From a phage, in the sequence record PZ386967.1: DNA of 64,000 nucleotides; one strand, 5' to 3'. How positions within the stretch are numbered: position 1 is the first letter of the stretch; every line of letters begins with the position of its first letter. The notes under the pieces are model-generated. The model saw nothing but the letters and a program-made list of their open reading frames with translations. It was not told the origin of the DNA and searched no databases. Shown piece after piece: positions 9,391 to 61,044 of this stretch. A program made the translations under genes and the position numbers.

Positions 9391-9424
9391 GGGGCTGCTA
9401 TAATAGCAGCTCCTTTTGTTTATT
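9391..9424 (+). terminator. terminator hairpin that also carries a TATAAT in its loop (terminator/promoter unit)
   Basis: GGGGCTGCTAT-AAT-AGCAGCTCC followed by TTTTGTTTATT; TTCAAA box 15 nt upstream of the TATAAT. Confidence 0.5.
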
Positions 9425-9434
9425 GGAGCAGTTT

Positions 9435-10094
9435 ATGTCCTACTCCCTGAAGGGGTTGATGAAGCGCCCCGTCCACACATTCTTTAAACCACCCGTCGTA
9501 AAGGGGATCTACCCAGCACGAGGGCAAATCTACTACGTCAAAGGCTCCAATGGTAGCGGTAAATCCACTGTGCCGTCTCAGCTGGCGGAGAGGGATCCTC
9601 AGGCGTATGTCGTGACCCATAATGGCAAGGTCATGCTGACTGTCTGTCCTTCGTTCAACGTGGTCTGTATCGGTAAATATGACAAGTCGAAGTCCAAGGG
9701 GGTTGATTCCCTGAAGGACACTGAGCAGATGTTGTTCGCGTTGTCTATTGCTGACCAACCAGAATACTTGAAATATGATGTGATTTTCGAAGGTATCATT
9801 CCATCCACATTATTGAGTTCTTGGATCCCCCGTCTGACACGCCCACCACGTGAATTGGTTGTGCTCTTTATGGACACTCCTCTTGAAACGTGTATCACCC
9901 GCGTTAAATCACGTAACGGCGGTGTGGACTTCAATGAAAGTCTGGTGGTCGAGAAGTGGGAGAGAGTTCATGACCATCGTCAACGACATAAAGACTTGTT
10001 CCCTACGGTAGCTGCGGGTATGATGAAGTCTCACGGCCTAACGGTAGACCAGGCTGTGATGGCATTCCTCTGTCGTGATTTTGGGAGTATCTGA
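9435..10094 (+). CDS. P-loop kinase, polynucleotide-kinase (Pnk) kinase-domain-like, no phosphatase domain
   Basis: Walker A GSNGSGKST in a context resembling T4 Pnk N-terminus (remembered GCPGSGKST); ORF track start 9423 is TTG, ATG at 9435 has GGAG SD; stop overlaps next gene start. Confidence 0.5.
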   Translation: MSYSLKGLMKRPVHTFFKPPVVKGIYPARGQIYYVKGSNGSGKSTVPSQLAERDPQAYVVTHNGKVMLTVCPSFNVVCIGKYDKSKSKGVDSLKDTEQMLFALSIADQPEYLKYDVIFEGIIPSTLLSSWIPRLTRPPRELVVLFMDTPLETCITRVKSRNGGVDFNESLVVEKWERVHDHRQRHKDLFPTVAAGMMKSHGLTVDQAVMAFLCRDFGSI

Positions 10095-11140
10095 TGGAAA
10101 TCAAAGCAATTAACAACAATGACATGCTGAAGCAGGCTGTCTTGGCTATCCGTGAATTCGGGATCGAATCTGATCCTGGTAATGCTGAAATCAATACTGA
10201 TAGCACCCGCTTCCTTGATGGTGTGACTATCACTGTTTCCGATATTCGTGACCGCTGGCTCTCCGTTGAAGGTCGCAACTCATCGGCTATCGCTGCCATC
10301 GGCGAGACCTTCTGGGTGTTGTCAGGTCGCAACGACATAAAGTTCCTGTCACGCGTATTGCCTCGCGCTGCTAACTTTTCGGATGATGGGGTAACATGGC
10401 GAGCTGCTTATGGTCCGCGTCTGTACGCCCATGGCCAGCTGGATAGCGTTATCAACCGCCTGCGCAAGAACCCAAACACTCGTCAGGCGTACCTCACCAT
10501 CTATGACCCGGCTCTAGATTCGGATGCTGGTCTGGCGAAGTTCAGCGAGAGCGGCGAAGCAAAGACTAAAGACATGGTGTGTAACCTGGCTCTGTTGTTC
10601 GCCATCGTTGAAGGTCGTCTGAACCTGACGGTCATCAATCGCTCACAGGATGTTCTGTGGGGGATGAGTTCAATCAACTTCATTGAGTTCTCTATTCTTC
10701 AGGAAGTGATTGCTCGGGTGTTAGATGTTGATGTCGGTCAGTACAAGCTCTTCTCCAACAATCTTCATTACTACAACAATGAAGTCAGCCAGAAGCAGCT
10801 GGGAAAGATCACGAAGGACACCAAAGTAGAAGCTGGGTTCATCAACACCATGATTCACTTCACGAACGTGACCAACCAGAACCATATCCGCAATCTGTTC
10901 ACTGGTGTGCTTCATCACTGTGATATCGGTAGCCCGTGGGAAACTGTGGTTGCTCACCTGAAGGAATACGATGCGGATCGCGGCCTGATTGTACAGATGG
11001 CGTACTGTCTGCACTGCAAACTGAACGAAAAGCTCATTAACCTGGACCTGATTCAGGATCATGGCTTGAACACCGCGCTCACCCATTCTCCGGTTGACCG
11101 CAAGATCGTTGATCCTAAGTTCCTGGAAGGTGTAGTATGA
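10094..11140 (+). CDS. thymidylate-synthase-fold pyrimidine hydroxymethylase / TS homolog with about 100-aa C-terminal extension
   Basis: ETFWVLSGRNDIKFL, WRAAYGPRLY, RQAYLTIYDP, catalytic Cys in MVCNLALLF, NRSQDVLWGMSSINF align to conserved ThyA blocks; Asn retained at the base-specificity position (uracil-type). Confidence 0.6.
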   Translation: MEIKAINNNDMLKQAVLAIREFGIESDPGNAEINTDSTRFLDGVTITVSDIRDRWLSVEGRNSSAIAAIGETFWVLSGRNDIKFLSRVLPRAANFSDDGVTWRAAYGPRLYAHGQLDSVINRLRKNPNTRQAYLTIYDPALDSDAGLAKFSESGEAKTKDMVCNLALLFAIVEGRLNLTVINRSQDVLWGMSSINFIEFSILQEVIARVLDVDVGQYKLFSNNLHYYNNEVSQKQLGKITKDTKVEAGFINTMIHFTNVTNQNHIRNLFTGVLHHCDIGSPWETVVAHLKEYDADRGLIVQMAYCLHCKLNEKLINLDLIQDHGLNTALTHSPVDRKIVDPKFLEGVV

Positions 11141-11706
11141 TGTACCCAAATCTTGAATTCTTTACGGGGCGCAAACGCTCCGGTAAGGACTTCTGTTTGG
11201 AGTCCCTCATCAGCTATCACCAACTACAGGGTGATATGGACATCCAGCGCCTTTCGTTCTCAGATGAACTGCGCCGTGTGGCCAACTACATCTACCCATG
11301 GCTGCCAGCGGAGGTAGAGGATGCCGTGAAGGACGTTCCTTACGTGCACCCTGATAACCCCAAGGGCTTAACTCCACGGCAGATCTGGCTTCATCTGGGC
11401 AGCGATACGGGCTTGCGTTACGTACAGCCTGATCTGTTCCTGGCATTCTTCAAGCGCTTCCAGCTTCCTCTGGTAGAGCAGAACCCCCACGTCCATTATA
11501 TCGTGAGTGATCTGCGTACCCCTCAGGAATATGAATGGGCGCTGAGTACGAAATGTCCTATCACCCGTATTTCAAAGGCCGACCGTGCTGGTATCATAGA
11601 GGACGATATAGAGGCTTTCATTGACCAAATGAAAGTGGACTACGAATTCCTCAATCCATTTGATGGTTGGGAACCGTTCGTTAAATTCTACGGAGAACGT
11701 AAATGA
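11137..11706 (+). CDS. 1: deoxynucleoside monophosphate kinase (T4 gp1-like)
   Basis: FTGRKRSGKDF matches remembered gp1 N-terminal SGVKRSGKD P-loop; translationally coupled to flanking genes. Confidence 0.55.
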   Translation: MMYPNLEFFTGRKRSGKDFCLESLISYHQLQGDMDIQRLSFSDELRRVANYIYPWLPAEVEDAVKDVPYVHPDNPKGLTPRQIWLHLGSDTGLRYVQPDLFLAFFKRFQLPLVEQNPHVHYIVSDLRTPQEYEWALSTKCPITRISKADRAGIIEDDIEAFIDQMKVDYEFLNPFDGWEPFVKFYGERK

Positions 11707-12257
11707 TCACAGCAGGACATATCAAAAGCCTGCTCGAACTCCAAAAGGCCACCAACGTGGCCTATTTTGGGGAAGAGTGGAAGAATGTATGGAGTCAGAA
11801 CGCAGTCATCAACTCTATCTATCGTGAGTGGGCAGAGTTCCTTGATGAAACCACCCGTGACTGGAAGGTCTATGGCAACGACATCAGGTTTGACCATACG
11901 AACGCAGTTTATGAACTGGTGGACGTGGTACACTTCATGTTGTGCTTCATCCTTGTGGACCGCACCAAAGGTGAGATCGAAGAAGAATTTGAAGTCCTTA
12001 GCAATCGCGAATTCACCCCATCTGCTTTGGGTGTTGTAGGGCATCGCAATGTTACGTACCGCCTTGGGCAATTCATGAACGATCCTTGCGTTGAGACTCT
12101 CATGTTCTTCCTGTCGTCTGCGTGTTCTTATATGGAGATCGACATTGAGACTTACATGCTGGCACACAAACGCAAGAACGATCGCAATCGTCTGCGTGCT
12201 TCTGGTGGTGTGGATTACGACAAGTCCGCAGAAACCCCTCTGACCCTGGAGTTCTAA
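11703..12257 (+). CDS. 56: all-alpha dNTP pyrophosphohydrolase (T4 gp56 dCTPase/dUTPase-like)
   Basis: EWAEFLDETTRDW and ELVDVVHFMLCFIL resemble the dimeric dUTPase/MazG metal-binding helices. Confidence 0.5.
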   Translation: MITAGHIKSLLELQKATNVAYFGEEWKNVWSQNAVINSIYREWAEFLDETTRDWKVYGNDIRFDHTNAVYELVDVVHFMLCFILVDRTKGEIEEEFEVLSNREFTPSALGVVGHRNVTYRLGQFMNDPCVETLMFFLSSACSYMEIDIETYMLAHKRKNDRNRLRASGGVDYDKSAETPLTLEF

Positions 12258-16337: not shown

Positions 16338-16464
16338 GTCAATAGAACACCAAGAAGCCCAGTCAAGTACTGGGCTTTTTAACTTCAATAACTTTACTTT
16401 CAAGAAATAATCGCCTAATATTTAATCTGTATTGAAGAGTTACAACTACATCATGAGGCTGGAA

Positions 16465-17658
16465 ATGAACGTCAAAACATTCAATATTCCGATCGACAAT
16501 GAAGGGTTGGTAGTTGAGCGACTGAAGAAGCTCGAGCGCACTGCCGAAAGGTTGGGTGTTCCGTTTCCGACTGTGACTTATGGTGAACCCTTCAAAACCC
16601 ACACCCGCGACTTCACTGGTGAGATCCTTACTCACTGGTGGAAACCTGTTACTCTCGAAGGCGAAGGCATTGACCGCCCCGTCTCTTATGGTGGCTGGAA
16701 GATCATCGGTCAGTTCAATCACGAATATCCAAAGGTTATTCTTAACCGCCTGTCCGACAACATCAATCCTGACTTCATCCGTCACTTCGAGACAGAGAAC
16801 GTCTCTTGGTGTCAGCATTGCAATCTAGTCATCCGTCGCAAGAACACGTATGTGATTGAAAATGAGGAAACGCATACCCAGATGCTGATTGGTAGCACCT
16901 GTATGCATCATTATGTGCCTCATCAGAAGTCCCTTGACGCGATTATGTCTTACTATCTGGAAATCCAAGAGTTCTTCATGCCAGACGAGGACGACCCAGA
17001 GGGTATATATCGCGTCCAAAATGAGCGCTTCGTCGACACCCACAGTTTCCTGCGCGCATGCTTCCAGGTGATGCTAGCAGGCGTGGATATCAAGTCTGAA
17101 CTGTTTGACAAAGTACTGGGCTATGTCCGGTCTCATCAGAAACCAAAAGCAGGTTCCGATGAAGAGTATTTCGTAAACAAGGCACACGAATACCGTGAAG
17201 ATGCCGAGTCGGAAATGTACCATATGAAGCTTTTCATCAGTGCGCTGTCCGAATCTAATGAGTTCAATGTTCGCCTGAAACGCATGTGTGAACCCGGCTA
17301 TCACCTCATCAAGGATAACAACACAGTCCGCTGGGGTGCCAAGAAGTATTACGATTACATCCATCGTCCTCGTACTGACCGCAAGGCGGAGAACAAATGG
17401 GTGGGTGAAGTCGGTGAAATGCTGGAAGTGCAAGTCAGGTTCGACAAGCGCACCTTCCTCTTCTCCAATGAATATGGTGATAGCTACCTGTTTACTTTCA
17501 AAACAGCAGAAGGCAATACAATTACCTGGAAGACCTCTTATATGGATACAGAGTTCTTGCAGGGTGATATGATCATCCGTGGTCGTGTTAAAGAACTGAC
17601 TGAGTACAACGGCGTTAAACAAACTCAGGTCACCAGAGCTAAATTGAGGAAGTTATGA
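16465..17658 (+). CDS. hypothetical protein with Cys/His cluster (CQHCN...CMHH)
   Basis: ORF track 16432..17658 (TTG); ATG at 16465 has GAGG SD. Occupies the position where T4 has primase gp61, but no clear TOPRIM motifs were recognised. Confidence 0.4.
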   Translation: MNVKTFNIPIDNEGLVVERLKKLERTAERLGVPFPTVTYGEPFKTHTRDFTGEILTHWWKPVTLEGEGIDRPVSYGGWKIIGQFNHEYPKVILNRLSDNINPDFIRHFETENVSWCQHCNLVIRRKNTYVIENEETHTQMLIGSTCMHHYVPHQKSLDAIMSYYLEIQEFFMPDEDDPEGIYRVQNERFVDTHSFLRACFQVMLAGVDIKSELFDKVLGYVRSHQKPKAGSDEEYFVNKAHEYREDAESEMYHMKLFISALSESNEFNVRLKRMCEPGYHLIKDNNTVRWGAKKYYDYIHRPRTDRKAENKWVGEVGEMLEVQVRFDKRTFLFSNEYGDSYLFTFKTAEGNTITWKTSYMDTEFLQGDMIIRGRVKELTEYNGVKQTQVTRAKLRKL

Positions 17659-26562: not shown

Positions 26563-27531
26563 TTAGAAGCTATCGCCTTCGGTTTCAAAGCGCCCTTTGT
26601 GTAGAGGCTCCAGTTCGATGAAGGTCATGTCAACCTGCGTGGACACGATACCATCATCTTTGTGAACCGCGTATGAACTGTCCGGCGTCTCGTTGACGAA
26701 CATGTTGGAAAGTACACAAGTGGAGATGCGGTGCAGCCACTGGTTACGCTCCCCATTGACCATGAACGTAATGTCGAATGTTGAAGGATGCAAGTAAAAC
26801 GCGCTGGAATTCTTGTTGTACTTGTACTCTGGGTACATATGCATCTTGAACATGCGGATGATCTCACGGACCATCTTGGCTTCCTTCTGAGATCGCGGCG
26901 TGAATTTGAATGTAAATGGAATCTCACGGTTGCGAACACCCTGGAAGATCATCTCCACATATGGGTTGGTCATGGTGCCTGTGAACAACTCAAGGGTGTC
27001 ATGAGCGTTAATGCTCGGCAGGAATGGAATAGCCTCCGACGCAGATTGGATAGCCTTGGTGGCAGCGAATCGCCCCATCTCCTTCCCGACGTTGAGCGCA
27101 TCACCCAGTTTAAACTGAGTCATGTCTTGGGCGGCGCGGGAAAGGAACTGTGCCCCCATACCAGCCAGCCCCAGCTCGCTACCGTTCCAGCCAACACCAT
27201 AGTTGGTTGTAATGGACTCCGGCATACACAGAACAATAGATTCGTTCGAACGAACGTGACGCGCCCATGCATATTTGGTGATGGAACCAGACTTGGACCC
27301 ATAGACCACAGGAGTATTCCCCAGAGGGTTCTGTATTGGGTTCTCGATAGTCTGAGTAGCCGTGTTGCCATAAGATGAACCGGAGATGCGGTTGATGTTG
27401 AATAGGACATAGTGTCCCAAGGTCTTACCCCCAGTAACGTCTAGGGGATAAGACAATTGCTTCTGAGCCTGGGACAATCCCTTCGTGTTCAGAACCTTGA
27501 TCTTATCGATTGTCTTCTTGAAGTCGGCCAT
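26563..27531 (-). CDS. tail tube / baseplate-tail-tube junction family protein (gp48/gp54-like, putative)
   Basis: 322 aa, beta-rich, similar size to T4 gp54; first gene of the minus-strand structural block. Confidence 0.4.
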   Translation of the reverse strand: MADFKKTIDKIKVLNTKGLSQAQKQLSYPLDVTGGKTLGHYVLFNINRISGSSYGNTATQTIENPIQNPLGNTPVVYGSKSGSITKYAWARHVRSNESIVLCMPESITTNYGVGWNGSELGLAGMGAQFLSRAAQDMTQFKLGDALNVGKEMGRFAATKAIQSASEAIPFLPSINAHDTLELFTGTMTNPYVEMIFQGVRNREIPFTFKFTPRSQKEAKMVREIIRMFKMHMYPEYKYNKNSSAFYLHPSTFDITFMVNGERNQWLHRISTCVLSNMFVNETPDSSYAVHKDDGIVSTQVDMTFIELEPLHKGRFETEGDSF

Positions 27532-28834: not shown

Positions 28835-29341
28835 TTATTTGTCAGGGTTCACTAAAACAGGGGTGGATACCAGTTCGCCGTTCTTCACAGAATGCTGGAC
28901 TACAACAAACTGATCGACCATGCGATATACTTCAATTCCAGCAGCCAGCATGTCAATAATGCCGTCTATGATACGATATGGTCGGTCATAGAACACTTTA
29001 GCGATCTTGCCACTGTCGATAATACGACGGGTGCACTCTGGGCATGGACTATGAGTGACAAACATCACTAGGCCACAACAGTCTTCAGTGTGCTGGGGGA
29101 GTTTGCTCAGAGCATTCTCCTCGGCGTGGATAACACCCACCGATACCAGTTGACCGTCTACTTCCTTCTCACAGACATTAGGAGCGCCAGGAGCAGTCCC
29201 GTTCCAACCGATAGACAGGGGCTGGTCAACACGCGGGTCAACGATAACACAGCCGACCTTCAGGCGCTGGGCATAGCTGGACAGGGCGTATGCATGAGCC
29301 GAGCGCATATGCGCAAATAACATACGGGGTTTGATAGCCAT
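28835..29341 (-). CDS. cd: dCMP deaminase (cytidine/deoxycytidylate deaminase family)
   Basis: Zinc motifs HAEENAL and SPCPECTRRI; ORF track start 29344 is GTG, adjacent ATG at 29341. Confidence 0.7.
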   Translation of the reverse strand: MAIKPRMLFAHMRSAHAYALSSYAQRLKVGCVIVDPRVDQPLSIGWNGTAPGAPNVCEKEVDGQLVSVGVIHAEENALSKLPQHTEDCCGLVMFVTHSPCPECTRRIIDSGKIAKVFYDRPYRIIDGIIDMLAAGIEVYRMVDQFVVVQHSVKNGELVSTPVLVNPDK

Positions 29342-29655
29342 CACATCACCAGTTTCTTTTCAAGGAGGAAGATCATGTCGTCTTGGTCTGCACGACCAAA
29401 GATCTGACCCATGGCGACCATCTGGTGGACTTCCCTGACAATGATTTCTTTACCAGGAGTAACTTCATCCAGGTCCATGATAGTGCTGACGCGGTCTACC
29501 ATGCGCGGCGGGTGATTAATGTAGCGCTGCAGGTACTTCTCGCGAGTGGCAATCAGGTTGTTCAGCTCGGAGATTTCAGACTCTTCTTCTGAGAAGCGCT
29601 TTTCCTTCGCCTGCAGTTCAGCCAGGCGCTCATACATTTCTTTTAATGGGGTCAT
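29341..29655 (-). CDS. hypothetical coiled-coil protein
   Basis: 104-aa ORF; promoter-like box/hairpin about 36 nt upstream. Confidence 0.4.
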   Translation of the reverse strand: MTPLKEMYERLAELQAKEKRFSEEESEISELNNLIATREKYLQRYINHPPRMVDRVSTIMDLDEVTPGKEIIVREVHQMVAMGQIFGRADQDDMIFLLEKKLVM

Positions 29656-47950: not shown

Positions 47951-48520
47951 TCAGCCTTTGAAGTTAATCGGTTTCTGAATACCAGCGTCGAACGCGGCCT
48001 GGGTACGGGTATCGCTCACCACCTGGCAAGTCTTGTCAAGGTCGATGCGCGGGTAGCCGAACATGCCAGCAATCAACGAACCAGGGAACTGAGCCAGCTT
48101 GGTTTCGTATATTGTGCAGATATCCAGCTTCTTGGTCTGGCTGATGCGGAATTCATCACGCCCAGAACTGATCACCACCTGGATCTCTTTGTACAGGCTG
48201 GAATCGAACTGAATATTCTGCTCCTGGATCCACTGCATGACGGCCTTGGAACCATCAGCGCCATAACGCCCTTCGAACGTGCCTTTGATCACTTCCTTCA
48301 GACCGTCTTTATACATGTCAGGAATCTGCGCCGTCTCCTGAACTTTGAGCGTGTAGTTGCTCAGGTAGTTCTCGGAGTCTTTGTTGAACTTCCTAACCTG
48401 CTGCTCAGTGCGGTTGAAGTCGTTGAAGTAGCTGATGACTGTACCGATGCCGAGAATCACTACACCCAGCAAAGCCAAACCAATTATCCAACCTGTTGCA
48501 ATACCCTTAGATTGAGACAT
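47951..48520 (-). CDS. LemA-family membrane protein
   Basis: N-terminal TM helix; C-terminal FPGSLIAGMFGY matches the conserved LemA FPxxIVAGMFGF block. Confidence 0.5.
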   Translation of the reverse strand: MSQSKGIATGWIIGLALLGVVILGIGTVISYFNDFNRTEQQVRKFNKDSENYLSNYTLKVQETAQIPDMYKDGLKEVIKGTFEGRYGADGSKAVMQWIQEQNIQFDSSLYKEIQVVISSGRDEFRISQTKKLDICTIYETKLAQFPGSLIAGMFGYPRIDLDKTCQVVSDTRTQAAFDAGIQKPINFKG

Positions 48521-48538: not shown

Positions 48539-49651
48539 TTAAAAATTAAACGGATAACGACGACCACCATTGTACTCCATTCGCTGCAATATGAAAATTG
48601 CGGTGAATGGTAAGCAACCCAGCAGAACAATAACCACAACTTCCCAGGTCTTGAGTTCCCGCCACTTCAGGTACTCCATTTCCTTCATCTCAACGCGGTT
48701 GTAGCCTTTGGTGATGTTAGCGACAACATCAGCCATGACACCGACGCCCATGTCGTGGCCTGTGAGAGTCATGCCATTGCGAGAGTGTAGTTCACGGTTA
48801 TACATACCATCAGCGAACGAAGTGCTCTTACCCCAGTTGATCTTCAGATCTTTGCTGATGTCGGTCACGACGATAACGTCGTTCTTTTTACCACCATCCC
48901 AAGCATAGACCAAGCCCTGGAAGTATTCAACTGGCTGACCGGATGTCACAACCCAGACGATATTGACCTGACGTGAAGCACCTAATGTTTTCAGAGTATT
49001 GTTCAGATAGTCGTTCCAGTATGTGGTCGGTAACGCCAGGCCGGACACATTCAACACACGAGTGACACGATAGTAGTCATAGACCTCAGGGTACTTGGGA
49101 ATCTTGTCTTTGAAGCGCTCAGCAAACTGCTGGTCCGAGCGAGAGAACAGAGAGTCCTTGTTACCCAGCACATAGTTCATGTAGGAATGCTCACGGGCTG
49201 CGGGTTCGCCGATCTGAACCTGCGCCCAGCGCGGCGGTTGACCAAGACCACGGCGATCAATACGGTCAATCGTCAGATTACCGACAGTAGTCAACACATC
49301 CCAGTCCACGTCATATGAATGCTCATAACATGTACTGCAATGGCGAGTGCGGGTACAGGACTTGCTACTGCCGGAGCCAGAGCACGATGTGGTGTAGTAG
49401 CAGTTGCATTCATATGAATGCTCACAGCTCACCTTATTCCGCTCCTTTGCAGTGACGTACCCGTTCAGGATCTCAACATCCCCTGAACTGCCAAGGGAGA
49501 ACGCAGCATAAGCCCCCGCCTGAATCAGACAGGATAGCACCACTACAATCGCGGTCGCTATCAGAGTCTCTTTCGGCTCATGGGTCTTGCGGTGGTAGGC
49601 CACAAACAGGATAGCCAGTACCAATGGCACACCAAACAGGAGGTAGATCAT
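48539..49651 (-). CDS. membrane protein with Cys-rich extracytoplasmic segment (hypothetical)
   Basis: TM helices at both ends; CEHSYECNCYYTTSCSGSGSSKSCTRTRHCSTCYEH cluster. Confidence 0.4.
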   Translation of the reverse strand: MIYLLFGVPLVLAILFVAYHRKTHEPKETLIATAIVVVLSCLIQAGAYAAFSLGSSGDVEILNGYVTAKERNKVSCEHSYECNCYYTTSCSGSGSSKSCTRTRHCSTCYEHSYDVDWDVLTTVGNLTIDRIDRRGLGQPPRWAQVQIGEPAAREHSYMNYVLGNKDSLFSRSDQQFAERFKDKIPKYPEVYDYYRVTRVLNVSGLALPTTYWNDYLNNTLKTLGASRQVNIVWVVTSGQPVEYFQGLVYAWDGGKKNDVIVVTDISKDLKINWGKSTSFADGMYNRELHSRNGMTLTGHDMGVGVMADVVANITKGYNRVEMKEMEYLKWRELKTWEVVVIVLLGCLPFTAIFILQRMEYNGGRRYPFNF

Positions 49652-50101: not shown

Positions 50102-50141
50102 CAAAAAGAAAGGGGAACGGGCTAATATTAACCCATTCCCC
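50102..50141 (-). terminator. terminator hairpin with TTCAAT-box promoter elements
   Basis: GGGGAACGGG / CCCATTCCCC stem, minus-strand TTTCTTTTTG after it; TTCAATAAA box upstream on minus strand. Confidence 0.45.
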
Positions 50142-50167
50142 TTTATTGAAGAACGCAATCCGCAGTC

Positions 50168-50338: not shown

Positions 50339-50374
50339 GATAATATCCTCGCTTTATAGGCGAGGATATTTATA

Positions 50375-51610
50375 TCAGCGTTTCAAGAGTGCCATGAGGT
50401 TGACGCTGCTGGACTTCGGCTTGTCCTCAACCTTGCGCACAGGCATCTTCAGGTTCGTACATACCTCGGATGGCTCCCAGCGCGTACCCTTTTGCAGGTG
50501 CCAGATATGCAGAGGAACACCAGTCTCAAAGAACACAGGCATCTTCCACTTCTGGACGCCTGGAACGTGCCCTGCAGGAGCCTTTTCGCACAACAGGGTA
50601 TCTGGCAGCCAGAGCGAACGGGCTTCCCAGAGCGCTGCGCAGGAGTATTCAGGCCAGACGCGTTCCATGTAGTCTATTTCATCCCAGGTACGCTCTGCGT
50701 CCCACCCGATGTAACGGGTATTCTTCAGTCGGAAGAATTTCTTCAGCCAACAAGCACCGGAGGTTTCAAAGTTCAGACGGTTGATGAACGTCAGGTGTCC
50801 GAACTCAGCCACACAATCCTGGAACGCCTGCTCAAGGTCGGCCTCAAGGATGTCACACTCTTCATCCGTGATAGGGCAACCGTTGATCTTTTTCTTCCCG
50901 TGTTTAGTCACCCAATCGTCACGGTTGGACAAGAACGCCGCGCCATTACGGTTGGACTCGCTTCCATCACGATCACGCAGCATGAAGCCAGGGACGTCAA
51001 TGGTGTATTCGTTCCCGAAGACCATGTTCAGGGCTTCCAGGAAGTTCCAGGCGCTCAGGCGACCGAAGTATTTCCAGGACATCGCCGTGTCCCACAGCTG
51101 GGTGAATTGTTCTGTCTTATCGATGCACACCAACATCCCACGGAAAGCGTCATATTGAGTACGGCCAGCCAGCCAGTCAATATAGGACTGAACACACGGA
51201 ATCATCTTGGACTTGCGGTAGCGGCAATCGGTATCGAATCGCATGCGATCAAAGTTCAGATTATACCAATCAGAGAAGCGCTGCATCTCTTCCTTAGACT
51301 GAGGCGGCACAGGGAACTCACTGTAGATCGTCCACGGCCCGACGGCGTTATAGCAACAACCCCACAGGAATGCCATCCAGATCTTGCGCTCGACTTTCTG
51401 TTCGAGGCTGATGCCTTCAGTGACTTCGATCGCATAGTCCATCAGACGCATCTGCTGGTTGTGCTCTTCTGTGTAGGACAGCGCCTCCACCCAAGCCTTG
51501 AGCAGGTACATGCGATTCTCAGGCTTGCGATAATCAACAGCCAGGTCAATCGGGTACTTCCATTCAGCCGGAGGTGTATAGCCCGTCGGCATTTTAGATA
51601 AATGATGCAT
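50375..51610 (-). CDS. hypothetical 411-aa protein (candidate DNA-modification enzyme by context)
   Basis: GAGGAAG SD; Trp/Cys-rich soluble protein; no motif recognised. Sits in a block with P-loop NTPase and HAD phosphatase next to the DNA polymerase. Confidence 0.4.
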   Translation of the reverse strand: MHHLSKMPTGYTPPAEWKYPIDLAVDYRKPENRMYLLKAWVEALSYTEEHNQQMRLMDYAIEVTEGISLEQKVERKIWMAFLWGCCYNAVGPWTIYSEFPVPPQSKEEMQRFSDWYNLNFDRMRFDTDCRYRKSKMIPCVQSYIDWLAGRTQYDAFRGMLVCIDKTEQFTQLWDTAMSWKYFGRLSAWNFLEALNMVFGNEYTIDVPGFMLRDRDGSESNRNGAAFLSNRDDWVTKHGKKKINGCPITDEECDILEADLEQAFQDCVAEFGHLTFINRLNFETSGACWLKKFFRLKNTRYIGWDAERTWDEIDYMERVWPEYSCAALWEARSLWLPDTLLCEKAPAGHVPGVQKWKMPVFFETGVPLHIWHLQKGTRWEPSEVCTNLKMPVRKVEDKPKSSSVNLMALLKR

Positions 51611-51971
51611 CTTTCGCTTCCTCTTCAGGAGCCACAGCTTCAGGCTCGGGAGCCAACTGAATGTCTTCTGGTTTCACAAACCCCATCGGACGTTCCCACA
51701 TATCGATGAAGCGGCGGTCGGCGGTCACAAACCAAAGACGGGCTGCAGTGTGGGTCTTACCCGAGATGAACATCTGGGCATTCGTCTGGGTACGGAACGG
51801 AGCCGCCTGCAACCACTTACCGAAGTCTTTGGACGACGGATTGGCATTCAGCTGGAACTGAGGGATGACGCAGTTCTTTTCAGGAATAAGGCGCACGGCA
51901 GTAATGTGCTTGGCGTTTCCGGTGTAGTCAATCGCAACAGCCACAGCATCGCGAGGGATTTGAATTTTCAT
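51594..51971 (-). CDS. hypothetical protein
   Basis: 125-aa ORF. Confidence 0.35.
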   Translation of the reverse strand: MKIQIPRDAVAVAIDYTGNAKHITAVRLIPEKNCVIPQFQLNANPSSKDFGKWLQAAPFRTQTNAQMFISGKTHTAARLWFVTADRRFIDMWERPMGFVKPEDIQLAPEPEAVAPEEEAKDASFI

Positions 51972-52171
51972 TTTGGTTCCTTGAATATTTTATAGCCAGC
52001 AGCGCCGATAGCCATAATCGCGCCGATACAATACAACATGGTCAGGTTCATCTTCTCTGAGGTTGTTAAGTCCAGAGGGGTGAAATGATAGGCTAGGGCA
52101 GTACACATTGAAACGGCTGCCATAACCAGACCAATGAACAACAGATAATTAGACAACCGTTTCATGATCAC
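51968..52171 (-). CDS. small membrane protein (hypothetical)
   Basis: 67 aa, two hydrophobic helices. Confidence 0.3.
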   Translation of the reverse strand: MIMKRLSNYLLFIGLVMAAVSMCTALAYHFTPLDLTTSEKMNLTMLYCIGAIMAIGAAGYKIFKEPK

Positions 52172-53085
52172 CCCTTCTTCATCAGGTCAAGGAGAGAGCG
52201 CGACGCTGCCTTCGTTGCTTCTGGCTGGGCGCTCGCCTTGGTTTTAGTTTTGGATGCCTTCTGCGGCTTCTCAGGGACTCTGTGCGCCAAAGGATCCTGG
52301 CCGCCGATTTCACGAGTCATCGGATTGGTTTCACAGTAGGCGTAGAAGTCTTTGGTGTCCATGTTAACTTCACGCAGTTCGGACCGTATCTGATGACAAA
52401 TCGCATTACCCACAACCCACAGCGGGGCGTCGTATGGGAGCACCGCCAACTCGGACTGCTGTTTGGTCGTGAACTCCTGGGTGTTGGTCTCTGGCGCTTT
52501 ATACAGGATATCCTGTCCGCTGTAATCATCAACAGCCACAGTGAAGCCCAGCGCCAGCATTTCGGCCTTCGACTTCTCAAACTCCTTGGAGTAAGATTCG
52601 TTGCGTGACCAGCCGGAGTTCCCTGCTTCTTTACCAGATCGACCACGGATACGAGCATCGTACTGATAGCGGTCGGGGTACGCAAAGTACAGCAGCGCCA
52701 ATGATTCAATCGGATAGTTCTTGAACATCCATTCAGGACGCCATTTGTCCGACAGCATGAGGGGTTCACCCTCACACACCAGAGTGTATCCCTGAACCAA
52801 CCAGCACTTGATTAGATCACGAGCAATATCGCCTGAGCCTGTAGCAGCATGGATTGCATCCATTGAAGTCCAGGAAGCCAGGCCGGATTTGTTAGACACG
52901 GTGTACTGTCCAACGAAGATTAACTTCAGCTCTCCGAACTTCAGGCCAAACGGGCGAGTCTTGTCACCAACGGTGTAGGTCAGTTCGGTAGGCTCCAGCT
53001 TCGTACGGAGCCATTCGATGAACTGGACCACTCTCGTACCCTTGCCCGTGGCCGAGGTGCCTTTCACTACGATAATTTTTGCCAT
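52168..53085 (-). CDS. P-loop NTPase / kinase (putative)
   Basis: Walker A VVKGTSATGKGT at N-terminus; 305 aa. Confidence 0.45.
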   Translation of the reverse strand: MAKIIVVKGTSATGKGTRVVQFIEWLRTKLEPTELTYTVGDKTRPFGLKFGELKLIFVGQYTVSNKSGLASWTSMDAIHAATGSGDIARDLIKCWLVQGYTLVCEGEPLMLSDKWRPEWMFKNYPIESLALLYFAYPDRYQYDARIRGRSGKEAGNSGWSRNESYSKEFEKSKAEMLALGFTVAVDDYSGQDILYKAPETNTQEFTTKQQSELAVLPYDAPLWVVGNAICHQIRSELREVNMDTKDFYAYCETNPMTREIGGQDPLAHRVPEKPQKASKTKTKASAQPEATKAASRSLLDLMKKG

Positions 53086-53390
53086 TACACAGCATCCTCA
53101 ATACGCCAGCTCACGCCGCCCAGCCAAGGTGCCCAGAACACAGCAACCTGCGGACGACCGTTTTCTTCAAACTTAACTTTATACTGGTCGTCGAAGTTAT
53201 AGAAGATTTCATCCGATTCAGAGCGCTGGCCGATCTTCACCAGTACATCATGAAGAGCCTTGGCTGCGCCGATAGGAGTTGGAGTCTCCTGCTGACGAAT
53301 GAAGTTGTTCACATGGTTAATCACGCCATCCATGTCGCTGTCACCGGAACGCTTGTCTGGGGTTTCCCCGAACTTATTCTGATCTTGCAC
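53085..53390 (-). CDS. hypothetical protein
   Basis: 101-aa ORF. Confidence 0.35.
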   Translation of the reverse strand: MQDQNKFGETPDKRSGDSDMDGVINHVNNFIRQQETPTPIGAAKALHDVLVKIGQRSESDEIFYNFDDQYKVKFEENGRPQVAVFWAPWLGGVSWRIEDAV

Positions 53391-53399
53391 GATGTCCTC

Positions 53400-54179
53400 C
53401 TATCGGACGTATTGATAATGACTAATCAGGCGGTTCACCACTTCGAAGATATTGTGGTTCAGGAAGTCGAAGTGATTCTGGCCTTCTACTGGTTTAATAT
53501 AAAGCATGTCTTCCGAATTCGAAAGATCCAGTTTTTCATAATTGCCCTGAGGAACAAAGATGACAAAGATGTTGTTCAGGCCGCACGGCTCGACATACTT
53601 CGGATTGTCATCAATCAGGACATCGCCAGCCAGCAGATGCTTTTCGTCGGTACTGACAAACCCGTTGAAGATACCAGGGAACTTATCATAGACAAACTGA
53701 CGCTTGCTGCGCTCGTGTTCCGGCTCACACTTGGACACTGCGATGAATTCAACATTGTCGAAATCTTCAAGCAAGATCTCCTTCAGATTTACCAGGAACT
53801 CGTAAGCGCCGGGGAGCGGGTTCATCTTGGCGTACAAGTCAGGGCGACGCCACCAGTCCATAGGATCGTTACCGCTTGGCACACGTTGTTTGTGCATCCC
53901 CAATTGGACTTCATGGTATAGCCACGCCGGATGCGCACGTTCACGCATCAGAATAGCCAGGTCGCCAGCATGGGACATATAACACTCTTTGGTGATCGGC
54001 TGGAACTGGTATGACTTATGTTCCCCCGTAGCGATAGCAGCGGCGGCGATGTTCTCTTCGTTAAACCACTGCACCCAAGGGGAGAGGCTGTCGACCAACG
54101 TCAGGTCAACATCCACGAGGACGCGATACAGGCCACCGACCTTTGATTTCATATCATAGATACAAACCAGGTTGTTCAT
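53400..54179 (-). CDS. HAD-superfamily phosphatase / 5'(3')-deoxyribonucleotidase-like
   Basis: HAD motif I DVDLT (VLVDVDLTLVD) near N-terminus. Confidence 0.45.
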   Translation of the reverse strand: MNNLVCIYDMKSKVGGLYRVLVDVDLTLVDSLSPWVQWFNEENIAAAAIATGEHKSYQFQPITKECYMSHAGDLAILMRERAHPAWLYHEVQLGMHKQRVPSGNDPMDWWRRPDLYAKMNPLPGAYEFLVNLKEILLEDFDNVEFIAVSKCEPEHERSKRQFVYDKFPGIFNGFVSTDEKHLLAGDVLIDDNPKYVEPCGLNNIFVIFVPQGNYEKLDLSNSEDMLYIKPVEGQNHFDFLNHNIFEVVNRLISHYQYVR

Positions 54180-54553: not shown

Positions 54554-54579
54554 ATTATATCCCCCTTTGGTTTATTGAA
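54554..54579 (-). promoter_or_regulatory. TTCAAT-box / TATAAT promoter with -10 in loop of GGGGGA/TCCCCC hairpin
   Basis: Minus TTCAAT 54579-54574, 14-nt spacer, TATAAT 54559-54554; immediately downstream of DNA polymerase stop. Confidence 0.4.
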
Positions 54580-57579
54580 TCAACCTTTCTTCTTTTGCAT
54601 CATGGCAAGAAGGTTCACACGGCGCTTGTGCGACCAGCCGACCACGTCAAGGATGGACTGAATCGGGTCAATGAAGGACTTCTCAAAGGCCGCCTGATAA
54701 TCCACCCATTTGCCCAGACCAAGCTCCTCAGGGAAGAACTCAGGATATGCGAAGTAATTCTGGCCGAATGGGTTGCCTGGCTTCAACAACACCATCTGTA
54801 CCTTATCACCCGACTCGATCATCGGTAGACCCAGATCTTCGTTCTTCTCAACCAGACGGTTGTAGCCCACACACGCCTTGGCAGCAAAATGAGCACCAGA
54901 GATGAACGATCCGTCAGCAGCCACACACTTCTCTATGTCGGACACGCCGGAAGCCTTGGCGATATCGTCTACAGAGAGTTTCATGTACTCCTCTTTGTAC
55001 TGGGAGATGAGCGCCTGTACTTCCTCTTCAGTGCCGAGTAGGATCTTCTCATAGCACTTGACAAGACGCTCACGACACCATTCCGGCGTGGTGGACTTGC
55101 GGGCTTCCAGACCTTTGAACTTGATCTTCGGCTTCTCGTACTTGATACCCTCACTGTCGTACACGGCCATGGCATACATCTTCTTGGCTCGCCAGACAGC
55201 GGCTGACGCAATGACCTCACGCTCCCATACCATGCGCTGTTCAAATCCGTTCATGGTGTTACACAGAAGCTGTGCCCACTCATTGGTCTTCGGCTGGTAG
55301 TTGTCTTTGATCCATTGGTCGATATTATCAACCATAGCATGATGGTCAGTAACATCAGGCCACAACTGCTTGACAAGACGCTCAATGCAGATGTAGTTGG
55401 AGTCGGTATCACCTGCGATGACGAAGTCCTGGCCTGTTGTACCACACAGCTTGTTCAGATAGTCATCAGTGTAACGCTTGTTCCACTTGTTGATCAGCTG
55501 ACCGGATGTGGTGATGGCTTCGGCAATGTTGAGGTTGAAGTACTCTTTGAACCAGACGTTCGAGATAGCGCCATAACCTGCGTTCATCAAGATCTTCAGA
55601 CCTTGCTGTAGGGTGTCTTGAGCAACGCCCAGATCTTCCCACTTCTTCATCACTTCGGTCAGTGCATCAAGATCAATGTTCTTGTGCTCTTCATACCACT
55701 CTGGGTCATAGTAGCGAGACTTCATGGCAGACTCAAGATGGAAGTCGCCCTTCGACATCTCTTTACACCAGCCAGCCCACTGCTCATACTTCAGACCCTT
55801 GGCCTTCTCTACTTTACGGTCGCTGTAGATACCACGCATGATTTCAGACAGGAACGACATCTTCTCGTTGCTGAAGAATTGAACGTTCGGCGTGAACGAC
55901 ACGTTGTAGCGGCGCAGGGTTTCAAAGTGGAACTCACCCAGGGCAACCAACTCATCAACAACCTGCAGGCGTTCGTCAACCGCACGCAACAGCTTGTCGT
56001 GAAGGGCTTTCATCAACCGACGTTTGTGCATCGGCGTTGCCATGTTATTCATCTGAGCAGCCAGCTCTTCACACATAGCCTCAATAATCTCGCGGCGCTG
56101 GTGTTTGTCGCCAACGATAGTCTCTGGACCGAGGTTGTACTGCTGAATGATGTGAGGATACAGGGAATTCAAATCTTCCGAGAAGACCCAGAAGTAGATT
56201 CCTGGTGTCACATCCATGACGTATGCACCCTCAAAGTCGGTCGGACCATCGTATACACGCTGGATCTTAGGCACTATCCCCTTCTCGTACAGGCGATAGT
56301 AGCACATGGCCAGCCACGGAGCCACAGTTCCCAGACCGTCTTCATAGTTGGACTTGGTGCGGTAGGCCAGGACGAACATCAGCTGGAGCAGGCGCAGCTT
56401 CTGTTCAAGTCGCCATACCAGCTTAACGTCTTTGATACCATATCGGGTGTGTTTGCAGTAGTCGTTGAAGTACAGATCAAAGAGCGACTTGCTCTCACTG
56501 TAGTCCATCTTCTTCTCACCCAGCTCACAATACGCAATCCAGTCAAGAGAGTAGCGTTCACGGGTGGTGTACGTGTGTTTCTTGTAGATCTGCATATAAT
56601 CGAGCATAGGACAGCCCACGAACTGATACGTCGTGATATCGCCCTTCTTATCGCGAATGATACGCTTCTTAATGATACCCCAAGGACTGAGGCGCGACGT
56701 TTCAGCCTCACCCAGAACCTGATTCATGCGCTCAACAAGATACGGGCTATCGAACGTTTCAATGTTCCAGCCTGTCCAGCCGTCGAACTGACGCTCCGAC
56801 CAGAAGTCAAGGAAAGATCGCAGCAGATCTTGTTCGGTGGTGAACTCCTGATAAACAACCTCAAGGCCGCCGATCTCTTTGTCTTCGGTGTCGTATGCGA
56901 ATTTGTTACGATCTTTGGCACAGGGCATACCCCAGACCATGAACTTATTGGTCGCCATATCCTGAAGCTGGATCAGGGTAATGGGGAACGCCGCATTCAT
57001 GTCTTGGGTGATCTTGCCGTTGCTGTCAATGATAGGGAACTGATCAGTGACGTTGTTGCTGATGAAAGAACCAGGGAAGTGCTCACGGACAAAGTCATGG
57101 TTGGCCAGCACTTGTTTATGGAAGCGGCGAATGCGCGCCTCATTCCCTTTGAACGTCTGCTGCTCAATAGTTGGGTGAGGGAATGGACCTTTGGTCATCT
57201 TTCCGTCTTTCCACCCGGCGGAGAATACTTCGATATCGAGGTTAGCAATATGGATGTTGGAGTAATCCGGCTCAATCTTTCCAGGAAAGCTATGGGCGAT
57301 GAACTGGTATGCATAATCGGTCTGCCCATAAATGGCAGCACCCTGGACTTCCTTGTACTCTTCAAGATAGTTGTCAGCGTCACGCATGGAAGGGAACTGC
57401 TTGGCTACCAGGGGTTCATTGAGAAGGCCGACCTTTTCAACATTTGAATAGTCAGCCGTGGGTAAATAGAGAGTGGGTTCGAATTTCTTTTTCAACAGAC
57501 GGCGATTACCCATGTCATCTGCAATTCGAATCAACAGGTCATTGCCCCTGCGGGCAACGTTCGTATAGAAAACGGTCAT
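54580..57579 (-). CDS. 43: DNA polymerase, family B (T4 gp43-like)
   Basis: Exo I NLDIEVF, Exo II NIETFDSPYL, pol motif A DLNSLYP, motif B KILMNAGYG, motif C AGDTDS; GGAG SD; 999 aa. Confidence 0.9.
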   Translation of the reverse strand: MTVFYTNVARRGNDLLIRIADDMGNRRLLKKKFEPTLYLPTADYSNVEKVGLLNEPLVAKQFPSMRDADNYLEEYKEVQGAAIYGQTDYAYQFIAHSFPGKIEPDYSNIHIANLDIEVFSAGWKDGKMTKGPFPHPTIEQQTFKGNEARIRRFHKQVLANHDFVREHFPGSFISNNVTDQFPIIDSNGKITQDMNAAFPITLIQLQDMATNKFMVWGMPCAKDRNKFAYDTEDKEIGGLEVVYQEFTTEQDLLRSFLDFWSERQFDGWTGWNIETFDSPYLVERMNQVLGEAETSRLSPWGIIKKRIIRDKKGDITTYQFVGCPMLDYMQIYKKHTYTTRERYSLDWIAYCELGEKKMDYSESKSLFDLYFNDYCKHTRYGIKDVKLVWRLEQKLRLLQLMFVLAYRTKSNYEDGLGTVAPWLAMCYYRLYEKGIVPKIQRVYDGPTDFEGAYVMDVTPGIYFWVFSEDLNSLYPHIIQQYNLGPETIVGDKHQRREIIEAMCEELAAQMNNMATPMHKRRLMKALHDKLLRAVDERLQVVDELVALGEFHFETLRRYNVSFTPNVQFFSNEKMSFLSEIMRGIYSDRKVEKAKGLKYEQWAGWCKEMSKGDFHLESAMKSRYYDPEWYEEHKNIDLDALTEVMKKWEDLGVAQDTLQQGLKILMNAGYGAISNVWFKEYFNLNIAEAITTSGQLINKWNKRYTDDYLNKLCGTTGQDFVIAGDTDSNYICIERLVKQLWPDVTDHHAMVDNIDQWIKDNYQPKTNEWAQLLCNTMNGFEQRMVWEREVIASAAVWRAKKMYAMAVYDSEGIKYEKPKIKFKGLEARKSTTPEWCRERLVKCYEKILLGTEEEVQALISQYKEEYMKLSVDDIAKASGVSDIEKCVAADGSFISGAHFAAKACVGYNRLVEKNEDLGLPMIESGDKVQMVLLKPGNPFGQNYFAYPEFFPEELGLGKWVDYQAAFEKSFIDPIQSILDVVGWSHKRRVNLLAMMQKKKG

Positions 57580-59780: not shown

Positions 59781-60974
59781 TCAGGAAGGGGTGAATTCGT
59801 TTACAGGAACTGTTTCAGGGATAGCCAGCTCAGGGCATGCTGCCTTCATCGGCTCGATGTATGGCTTGCTACCCACAATCCAGAACAGAGTGTTCTCATT
59901 GAGCAACTCGGGCTTGTGTTGCTGAACCCAGGTCATGACCTTGCCTTCATAGCGAGGATGCAACTCAATATCACCCCACTGATATTCCATCAGGTCATTA
60001 TAACGAACCCAATTAGTGGTATGAAGATCCCAATGGTGTACCTCAAAGCGAGGAAGCACGACCTCTGGCTCTTCCTTCTGCCTGATACCACTTAGGAGGC
60101 CAGCCAGCGAAACGCTCTTAGAGGCATGCTGAAGCTCCTTCTTGCCGTGTACATAGTCTGGGTTGTCGTGATAGCGACGGGTAAAGTCGACAATGTGCGG
60201 TAGATTGGCATGTTTGCCGATGATGCGCAGACGACTCTCGATAAAGTCCAGGCGGTTCGGACCGATGCCAATCAGATACACACGCTTCAGATTAGGCTTC
60301 GGATGCATTGCCAGCCCGGTCAGGATGCTTGTGCAAGAGTTGCACGATCCGGCTGGGATGATCAGGTCAGTAATGTGATCAGGAATGTTGGCAACCTGCT
60401 CGCCACCCAACATATGGAACCCAGCAATGCGCTCAGGGGAGTGGGCTGTATGGTCGAGGGTGATACCATACTCCAGATAATACGCCTTTGGATTCTGTTG
60501 TTCGATCAACTTCTTACAGCGCGGCTGGATGGTGCTGTTGTAACCCGAGCCGACGAAGTTGAACTCACTACCAAACCAGGCTGACATTGCCACCATTTCA
60601 TGGTTCATACAGGTGGTGGGTTTGGTCGCGCCGAGCACAGTAGTTGTCTTGCCGCCGAAGTGCCGAGAGACTGCCGTCGCCATAGGGGACTGCGGACTAC
60701 CAACGACAGTACCATGGATGATGTCAGGGGAGCCTCCGGTCATGAGGTGCTCAACCATCAACCAGATGGCCTGGCGGAGTTTGCTGCCGTTGATGCCCTG
60801 CTGGCCATTTGCATAATTGGACAGCGGCGCAAAATAATCTTCACGCTTGAACCAGACCTGCTGGTTGGTTTCGGGGTTGACGACAAGTTCGCACGGGGTG
60901 TGCTTGTAGAGATAATCTTCCCAATGGACCAGGTTGCGGTCGAGGGAAAGGATATCGAAGATGGTCTTGTTCAT
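59781..60974 (-). CDS. possible PLP-dependent (fold-type II-like) enzyme; low-confidence
   Basis: ORF track start 60995; ATG at 60974 has AGGAGAAAA SD. NGSKLRQA resembles the S-x-K-x-R lysine motif of Trp-synthase-beta-like enzymes, but the match is weak. Confidence 0.3.
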   Translation of the reverse strand: MNKTIFDILSLDRNLVHWEDYLYKHTPCELVVNPETNQQVWFKREDYFAPLSNYANGQQGINGSKLRQAIWLMVEHLMTGGSPDIIHGTVVGSPQSPMATAVSRHFGGKTTTVLGATKPTTCMNHEMVAMSAWFGSEFNFVGSGYNSTIQPRCKKLIEQQNPKAYYLEYGITLDHTAHSPERIAGFHMLGGEQVANIPDHITDLIIPAGSCNSCTSILTGLAMHPKPNLKRVYLIGIGPNRLDFIESRLRIIGKHANLPHIVDFTRRYHDNPDYVHGKKELQHASKSVSLAGLLSGIRQKEEPEVVLPRFEVHHWDLHTTNWVRYNDLMEYQWGDIELHPRYEGKVMTWVQQHKPELLNENTLFWIVGSKPYIEPMKAACPELAIPETVPVNEFTPS

Positions 60975-61044
60975 TCTATTTTCTCCTGTAGACATTGGCT
61001 TATCATAGTGTATCTACAGGAGTATAGAAAAGGAGAATCTCGGA

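Follow-up and report, generated by a model that had tools for sequence, protein, structure and literature searches.

The 64,000-nucleotide stretch of phage DNA analysed here (sequence record PZ386967.1; hereafter, the window) carries, directly downstream of its DNA polymerase gene, a block of open reading frames (ORFs) that is very probably the polymerase-proximal part of the Ackermannviridae pathway for hypermodification of thymidine to 5-(2-aminoethoxy)methyl-2'-deoxyuridine (5-NeOmdU). The three largest products of this block are a protein of 411 aa, a P-loop protein of 305 aa and a HAD phosphatase of 259 aa. Their ORFs were confirmed from the translations to lie on the minus strand where a first-pass annotation of the same DNA had placed them (Table 1), downstream of the 999-aa polymerase (54580-57579; PHROG 'DNA polymerase'). 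That annotation had regarded all three as candidate post-replicative enzymes acting on hydroxymethyl bases in DNA. The proposal holds for the 305-aa and 411-aa proteins, which are identified from sequence as orthologues of gp243 and gp247 of phage ViI, and probably not for the HAD protein, which by sequence and predicted fold is most likely a mononucleotidase. The pathway itself has already been published, and the kinase and transferase assignments add nothing new to it.

The biochemical reference for this block is Salmonella phage ViI (Vi01). In ViI, 5-NeOmdU replaces ~40% of T (Lee et al. 2018, PMC5889632), and the base was reconstituted from lysates expressing gp67, gp160, gp226, gp243 and gp247 (PMC5889632). 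Both gp67 and gp243 convert 5-hydroxymethyl-2'-deoxyuridine (5-hmdU) in DNA to 5-phosphomethyl-2'-deoxyuridine (5-PmdU) (Lee et al. 2021, PMC8989533). Purified gp247 was found to attach L-serine to 5-PmdU via the hydroxyl, yielding O-serinylthymidine, and gp226 behaved as a pyridoxal 5'-phosphate (PLP) enzyme and was assayed as a decarboxylase (PMC8989533). The modification genes were described in a 2024 review as highly conserved across Ackermannviridae (PMC11721090).

The 411-aa protein, in which the first-pass annotation could place no motif, was found to match the Pfam family PF18724 (ADDT, 'Amino acid:DNA transferase') with a score of 203 bits (cut-off 26.2; E = 7.3e-60), residues 49-292 aligned to profile positions 2-228 of 232. 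Its identity to ViI gp247 (YP_004327568) is 90%, without gaps. The protein is accordingly classified by its sequence as an amino acid:DNA transferase (AADT; formerly aGPT-Pplase clade 2) and an orthologue of the serine:DNA transferase gp247, and the high identity predicts that it converts 5-PmdU and L-serine to 5-O-serinylthymidine in DNA. Among 38 transferase homologues, down to 40% identity, residues E282, T283, C287, W288, K290 and K291 are invariant. The Glu/Cys pair essential in gp247 is kept as E282 and C287; essential Cys and Glu residues have been reported in both gp247 and M6 gp51, with Cys-to-Ala and Glu-to-Ala mutants being inactive (PMC8989533). By Pfam profile coordinates and local alignment, E282 and C287 correspond to E243 and C247 of PaMx11 gp46, Cys247 being the catalytic nucleophile in the gp46 crystal structure (PMC11472151). 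On the ADDT profile, gp46 residues 25-255 cover positions 24-231 and C247 shares its profile position with C287, and the local alignment pairs INRLNFETSGACWLKKF of the window protein with VNIQEVETIL-CKWKSH of gp46. A four-sequence MAFFT global alignment paired the catalytic cysteine of gp46 and gp51 with C341 instead; this pairing was rejected because C341 falls outside the ADDT domain (49-292) and varies among the 38 homologues. The profile coordinates, the local alignment and the 38-sequence conservation together point to C287 rather than C341 as the catalytic cysteine. Further invariant residues of the family lie in the motifs DTDCRYRK and SESNRNG (protein residues 126-133 and 217-223). Publicly, the transferase is labelled 'hypothetical protein'.

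The profile and fold comparison with characterised transferases and 5-hmdU DNA kinases that the first-pass annotation had proposed gave the ADDT match, a PUGT fold and, for the P-loop protein, an HMUD2 match. The AlphaFold2 (AF2) model of the transferase is all-helical, with a predicted local distance difference test score (pLDDT) of 90.4. In a Foldseek search, its top two PDB fold matches were the PaMx11 gp46/PUGT entries 8z2m and 8z2n (probability 1.00 and 0.98; target-normalised TM-score 0.57-0.58), followed by the 8-oxoguanine DNA glycosylase AGOG. The gp46 structure was recovered by fold search only, because it is too distant for single-sequence search: phmmer of the transferase and of the P-loop kinase against PDB sequences gave no match even at E <= 1. 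The glycine transferases PaMx11 gp46 and M6 gp51 belong to the same ADDT family as the window protein, with the same ET...C-W-K motif, and PaMx11 and M6 share with the window and ViI the logic of a kinase followed by a transferase acting on 5-PmdU. The ViI-type transferase differs in attaching serine through its hydroxyl (an ether), whereas the PaMx11/M6 type attaches glycine through its amine. The window enzyme is also ~120 residues longer, having 48 additional N-terminal residues and a helical C-terminal extension (~293-385) that is confidently modelled and absent from the 292-aa glycine transferases. This extension may bear on the selection of serine or on the binding of DNA.

Pfam PF18747 (HMUD2, '5-hmdU DNA kinase 2') gives a full-length match to the 305-aa protein, with residues 1-304 aligned to profile positions 1-298 of 298, at 526 bits against a cut-off of 25 (E = 3.3e-158). 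The protein is 85% identical to ViI gp243 (YP_004327565). The earlier P-loop call was borne out by a Walker-A-like loop, GTSATGKGT, at residues 9-17 (G9, G14, K15, G16, T17), which reads GTSGTGKGT in ViI gp243. From this evidence the protein is assigned as a clade 2 5-hmdU DNA kinase (kinase 2) and gp243 orthologue, and its identity to gp243 predicts ATP-dependent phosphorylation of 5-hmdU in DNA to 5-PmdU. Its gene lies 558 nt upstream of the transferase gene on the same strand. A clade 1 enzyme of the ViI gp67 type (kinase 1) is also encoded in the window, and the two kinases are only 23% identical. An alternative is given by public labels, as ViI Vi01_196 and phrog_4409 are both called 'guanylate kinase', which would make the 305-aa protein a mononucleotide kinase. 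This reading can almost be dismissed: the protein has no Pfam guanylate-kinase match and matches HMUD2 end to end instead, its ViI orthologue phosphorylates 5-hmdU in DNA, and a deoxynucleoside monophosphate (dNMP) kinase is separately encoded in the window (Table 1). The public annotation of 5-hmdU DNA kinases misleads systematically: clade 1 enzymes are labelled 'terminase small subunit' (phrog_800, PaMx11 gp49 and M6 gp54; comparison loci L004 14218-14787 and L005 13686-14249), and clade 2 enzymes 'guanylate kinase' (phrog_4409 and the RefSeq records of ViI, Ag3 and SKML-39).

The last enzyme of the predicted route is encoded on the far side of the polymerase gene by a ViI gp226 orthologue. 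Its score against Pfam PALP (29.3 bits) is below the 35-bit cut-off, so that orthology to gp226, rather than Pfam, is the ground for assigning it as a PLP decarboxylase. The predicted PLP-binding lysine of ViI gp226, K92 (PMC8989533), aligns with K72 of the window protein within a shared GSKLRQ motif. By sequence, the protein is identified as a divergent fold-type II PLP enzyme, predicted to convert 5-O-serinylthymidine to 5-NeOmdU. None of the transferase, the two kinases, the HAD protein, the PLP enzyme and the small ORFs of the block has an NCBIfam family. At the supply end of the route, the thymidylate-synthase homologue misses all NCBIfam thymidylate-synthase cut-offs by a wide margin (58 bits versus 327) and is presumed to be a divergent dUMP hydroxymethylase supplying 5-hmdUMP rather than a true thymidylate synthase, a role taken from PMC8989533 and PMC10791037. 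In relatives it is still annotated as 'thymidylate synthase'.

Taken together, the proposed route would begin with the dCMP deaminase, the thymidylate-synthase-like enzyme (the presumed dUMP hydroxymethylase) and the dNMP kinase, which would produce 5-hmdUTP, and the phage polymerase would place 5-hmdU in DNA instead of T. Kinase 2 would then convert 5-hmdU in DNA to 5-PmdU by ATP-dependent phosphorylation of its hydroxymethyl group. Cys287 of the transferase, aided by Glu282, would attack C6 of the base, the phosphate would leave and an exocyclic methylene would form, to which the side-chain hydroxyl of free L-serine would add, giving 5-O-serinylthymidine. Finally, the PLP enzyme would decarboxylate this product to 5-NeOmdU. 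The kinase, transferase and decarboxylase chemistry is predicted for this phage from 85-91% identity to biochemically demonstrated ViI orthologues, from the identical gene order and from the conservation of catalytic residues.

A different end product would result if the transferase used a nucleophile other than serine, as the donors of AADTs do vary: M6 and PaMx11 use glycine, PhiW-14 putrescine and ViI serine. No DNA composition data were found in the literature for any Agtrevirus phage, the group to which the window is most similar, and the paper on phage AV101 still calls its DNA substituted with 5-hydroxymethyluracil (hmU). Such a change of donor is nevertheless highly improbable, given the gap-free identity to gp247 and a matching decarboxylase that is 91% identical to its ViI counterpart. 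In addition, the 301-Da nucleoside is still produced by the Vibrio-phage relatives within Ackermannviridae, whose transferases are only ~48% identical to that of the window; it was reported in Vibrio phage 1.255.O (PMC5889632). 5-NeOmdU was also demonstrated by mass spectrometry in a Taipeivirus phage, at ~16% of T (2026 preprint).

The 259-aa HAD protein is the member of the block for which the post-replicative proposal is probably wrong. The HAD call itself was correct: the translation contains motif I as D23-V-D25-L-T27 and motif IV as D190-D191. The protein matches Pfam PF06941 (NT5C) at 35.2 bits against a cut-off of 24.8, the match covering residues 109-198 only, and phmmer against PDB sequences gave 3bwv at E = 0.0013. 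Its identity to ViI orf00239 is 76%. Across 29 homologues there is no variation at D23, D25, T27, S158, K159, D190 or D191, nor at residues of a family-specific KCEPEH motif. In the AF2 model (pLDDT 88.4), a helical insertion (residues 32-87) directly follows motif I, the position at which the cap enclosing the substrate sits in capped HAD phosphatases. The best PDB folds were Staphylococcus epidermidis 3bwv, human mdN (1q92 and 1mh9) and mouse and human cdN (2jao and 2i7d), and deoxyribonucleotidase entries made up six of the eight best Foldseek matches (E = 5e-8 to 7e-6). With human mdN and cdN and with 3bwv, the window protein has in common the HAD core of DxDxT and DD and the cap after motif I (target-normalised TM-score 0.63-0.77); it differs in being ~60-90 residues longer, in the larger size of the insertion that separates motif I from motif II and in having the KCEPEH motif, and is 15-19% identical to them. 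The NT5C family, the motifs and the predicted capped fold thus indicate that the protein is most likely of the capped 5'(3')-deoxyribonucleotidase (NT5C) type and most likely acts on free mononucleotides, not on DNA.

An action on DNA would take the form of either dephosphorylation of 5-PmdU, limiting or patterning the modification, or 3'-phosphatase activity like that of the HAD domain of T4 polynucleotide kinase. The gene appears to belong to the same transcription unit, with the polymerase on one side and a DNA kinase on the other, and is kept throughout Ackermannviridae, Vibrio members included; the partial modification seen in ViI and in the Taipeivirus phage also implies some limiting factor. 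A DNA-level role is nonetheless very unlikely, since the best sequence and fold matches (3bwv, mdN and cdN) are all capped mononucleotidases, no cap-less DNA phosphatase occurs among the Foldseek matches listed, and the helical insertion stands at the cap position.

For a mononucleotidase in this place, there is about an even chance that its role is the pre-replicative dephosphorylation of dTMP (or of competing dNMPs), which by analogy with other hmU phages would let 5-hmdUTP out-compete dTTP. In hmU phages, dTMPase and dTTPase are part of the pre-replicative programme and depletion of dTMP/dTTP is needed (PMC8989533). Bacillus hmU phages have a dTMPase according to Aposhian 1965, as cited in PMC8989533, which is a functional parallel to the role proposed here, with no homology claimed. 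A broader reading treats the HAD protein as a general deoxyribonucleotidase engaged in nucleotide turnover, for example of host-DNA breakdown products, with no specific link to thymidine modification; its position beside the kinase would then reflect inherited gene order only. NT5C-type nucleotidases form a separate PHROG family of the auxiliary metabolic gene class (phrog_2643, a weak match), the functional organisation of Ackermannviridae genomes has been described as scattered (PMC11721090) and the hypermodification papers do not list the gene (PMC8989533, PMC5889632). Against these points, hmU phages need dTMP/dTTP depletion, and no other candidate dTMPase was found among the scanned window ORFs. 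Clear homologues of the HAD protein are essentially confined to Ackermannviridae, whose examined members have 5-NeOmdU. Such a general role is judged somewhat unlikely.

A further comparison for the dTMP-directed role comes from transferase loci of another kind. Two uncultured-phage contigs (L007 5880-9101 and L008 5865-9089) encode, in order, ParB_N, Tet_JBP, one ORF and an ADDT transferase ~42% identical to that of the window. In L008 the ORF directly upstream of ADDT is a P-loop kinase 3 (Ploopntkinase3); the 179-aa ORF at this place in L007 has no annotation. These cassettes stand just upstream of the large terminase gene in small genomes, and neither a thymidylate-synthase homologue nor a HAD gene was found in the two loci. 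Presumably, their hmU arises when a dioxygenase acts on T in DNA, and not from the nucleotide pool, and they resemble the dioxygenase route to hmU in recent papers.

Several points weigh against the pathway and nucleotidase assignments preferred here. Enzymes of the mdN/cdN type also hydrolyse dUMP, which would run counter to the supply of the hydroxymethylase. The comparison with Tet_JBP cassettes covers two loci only. No substrate assay of the HAD protein was found in the literature for any Ackermannviridae phage, and the hypermodification papers omit the gene. For the transferase, the Foldseek E-value of the PUGT match is weak (0.12) despite its first rank and probability of 1.00, and pairwise BLASTP to PaMx11 gp46 and M6 gp51 was not significant, so that the link to these two enzymes rests on profiles. 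Finally, the pathway in this phage is predicted from its genes, and DNA composition cannot be derived from sequence.

Two more speculative readings may be added. In the first, the HAD protein, whose gene keeps its place between the polymerase and kinase 2 throughout Ackermannviridae, would be the missing dTMP-selective nucleotidase, setting the balance of dTTP and 5-hmdUTP. In the second, the fate of each 5-hmdU residue, conversion to 5-NeOmdU or return to T, would be set by two non-redundant pairs of kinase and partner. Kinase 2 may be paired with the clade 2 transferase of the block and kinase 1 with its clade 1 paralogue, gp160, and the 101-aa and 125-aa ORFs may be accessory factors for the choice between 5-NeOmdU and T. 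Taken together, these two readings are quite unlikely. The gp160 paralogue is outside this window: tblastn of the window for it and for its neighbouring MazG-like gene gave a best E of 2.3. A 408-aa ORF (16432-17658) considered as gp160 was ruled out and has no Pfam match. In ViI, gp160 adjoins the MazG-like gene, the clamp loader and the clamp; the earlier statement that the window holds no clamp or clamp loader agrees with this layout, no direct scan of the window for clamp genes having been made.

Table 1. Genes and sequence elements of the polymerase-proximal block and of related pathway steps in the window.
Feature	Position	Strand	Basis
Kinase 1 (5-hmdU DNA kinase clade 1, ViI gp67 type)	9423..10094	+	Pfam HMUDK_HMUD1 E = 1.7e-108
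Thymidylate-synthase homologue	10094..11140	+	Pfam Thymidylat_synt E = 1e-15; phrog_3676
dNMP kinase	11137..11706	+	phrog_139 'deoxynucleoside monophosphate kinase'
All-alpha dUTPase/NTP pyrophosphohydrolase	11703..12257	+	phrog_173 'NTP pyrophosphohydrolase'; Pfam dUTPase_2
dCMP deaminase, predicted dUMP supplier	28835..29344	-	phrog_174 E = 5e-53; RPN242 annotation
Intrinsic-terminator-like hairpin, 16-bp stem and T-run, closing the block	50109..50144	-	Terminator scan
55-aa ORF, glycine-zipper membrane segment	50171..50338	-	phrog_3879 E = 1.5e-31; syntenic with ViI orf00248
10-bp hairpin between transferase stop and 55-aa ORF start	50342..50368	-	Folding energy; kept in ViI
Predicted amino acid:DNA transferase (AADT), 411 aa	50375..51610	-	Pfam ADDT; ViI gp247 orthologue
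125-aa ORF	51594..51971	-	phrog_4163 E = 7e-66
Membrane ORF, 67 aa	51968..52171	-	phrog_4514 E = 8e-32; syntenic with ViI orf00244
Predicted 5-hmdU DNA kinase, clade 2 (kinase 2), 305 aa	52168..53085	-	Pfam HMUD2; ViI gp243 orthologue
DUF7254 ORF, 101 aa	53085..53390	-	Pfam DUF7254 E = 6e-52; syntenic with ViI orf00240
HAD phosphatase, 259 aa	53400..54179	-	Pfam NT5C, motifs, AF2 fold
DUF7292 lipoprotein-like ORF, 116 aa	54176..54526	-	Pfam DUF7292 E = 8e-54; phrog_3748; syntenic with ViI orf00237
Promoter-like site TTGATT-18-TATAAT, gap between polymerase stop and first block ORF	54554..54583	-	
Predicted PLP-dependent decarboxylase (ViI gp226 orthologue)	59781..60995	-	91% identity to gp226, YP_004327553

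Between the enzymes lie the small membrane or uncharacterised ORFs of 116, 101, 67 and 125 aa that had already been pointed out. The ORFs of the block are real genes and not chance ORFs, since each matches a PHROG family (E <= 1e-31) and the 4.6-kb block DNA is matched in 283 phage records. The best of these matches, at ~96% identity, are Escherichia phages LHE287, AV101, A221 and RPN242, followed by Salmonella phage SKML-39 and Shigella phage Ag3 (~91%) and then by Dickeya Limestonevirus phages. RPN242 is classified in Ackermannviridae, subfamily Aglimvirinae. These matches and this classification place the source of the window in the ViI-like phage family, Ackermannviridae, close to Agtrevirus.

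The layout is consistent with a single transcription unit, on the grounds of start/stop overlaps, a promoter-like site after the polymerase and a strong terminator (50144-50109). The 3' end of the 116-aa ORF runs into the start of the HAD gene, the stop codon of the 101-aa ORF overlaps the start codon of kinase 2 by one base, the 67-aa ORF has 4-nt start/stop overlaps with each neighbour and 17 nt are shared by the 125-aa ORF and the start of the transferase gene. Apparently, the small interleaved ORFs are co-transcribed. The promoter-like site has 10 of 12 matches and is the best in the region; the promoter scan was uninformative overall, with 7 sites found versus 8.1 expected by chance. Between the transferase and the 55-aa ORF, a perfect 10-bp hairpin (-17.5 kcal/mol, z = -5.0) ends 5 nt before the ATG of the latter. 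It is kept in ViI (locus L002, about 27316-27346), where two G-C pairs are replaced in a G-U-compatible manner, and it could be an element for RNA processing, stability or translation control.

The order in ViI (polymerase, orf237, 239, 240, 243, 244, 245, 247, 248) is that of the window, ORF by ORF, and the same Pfam families are matched in the two phages. The window is Agtrevirus-like (Aglimvirinae by its closest relative), whereas ViI is a Kuttervirus. The small ORFs are more diverged from ViI than are the enzymes, the 125-aa ORF for example being 58-63% identical, with no functional difference apparent. Pfam gave nothing informative for the 125-aa, 67-aa and 55-aa ORFs. The 125-aa ORF was found in 265 phage records, nearly all from phages of enterobacterial hosts and none from Vibrio phages. 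Since the Vibrio phages of Ackermannviridae encode the transferase, the 125-aa ORF is, on this distribution, not a universal part of the pathway.

A base such as 5-NeOmdU likely interferes with nanopore basecalling. Overall, the window confirms that an Agtrevirus-like coliphage has four of the five ViI genes with which 5-NeOmdU was reconstituted, plus nucleotide-pool enzymes, the fifth gene being that of the gp160 paralogue. If the pathway operates as predicted, the virion DNA should resist many type II restriction enzymes (PMC6449724, PMC11721090) and should carry primary amines on a fraction of T positions, as in the amine-reactive labelling of ViI DNA (PMC5889632).

Mobile elements appear to have entered this region in relatives. 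In RPN242, a SegD-like homing endonuclease gene lies between the DUF7254 ORF and kinase 2 (locus L001, 7039-7725), and in AV101 and Ag3 a homing endonuclease is annotated within the same block; none is present in the window, where the 101-aa ORF and kinase 2 abut at 53085. Kinase 2 is matched by positions 203-497 of the family phrog_15209 ('endonuclease', 497 positions), an indication that a fused ORF for endonuclease and kinase has been annotated in some phages. The polymerase of RPN242 is annotated as two coding sequences ~1.1 kb apart with two ORFs between them (L001, 9220-13402), presumably through a mobile insertion, and is intact in the window.

Elsewhere in the window, a 180-aa 'Phage ACT-like domain' protein (12257-12799; PF24021, E = 2e-79) is encoded directly after the run of kinase 1, thymidylate-synthase homologue, dNMP kinase and dUTPase genes. 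ACT domains usually bind small-molecule ligands, and for this reason the protein could regulate the nucleotide-pool enzymes. Downstream of the block lie an RIIA-like protein of 918 aa (43418-46174; phrog_3661) and a pair formed by a 370-aa Cys-rich membrane protein (48539-49651) and a 189-aa ORF (47951-48520), with no Pfam match for the pair. The 189-aa ORF is labelled LemA in RPN242, and the 370-aa protein has an orthologue in ViI that bears the label 'host lysis protein'.

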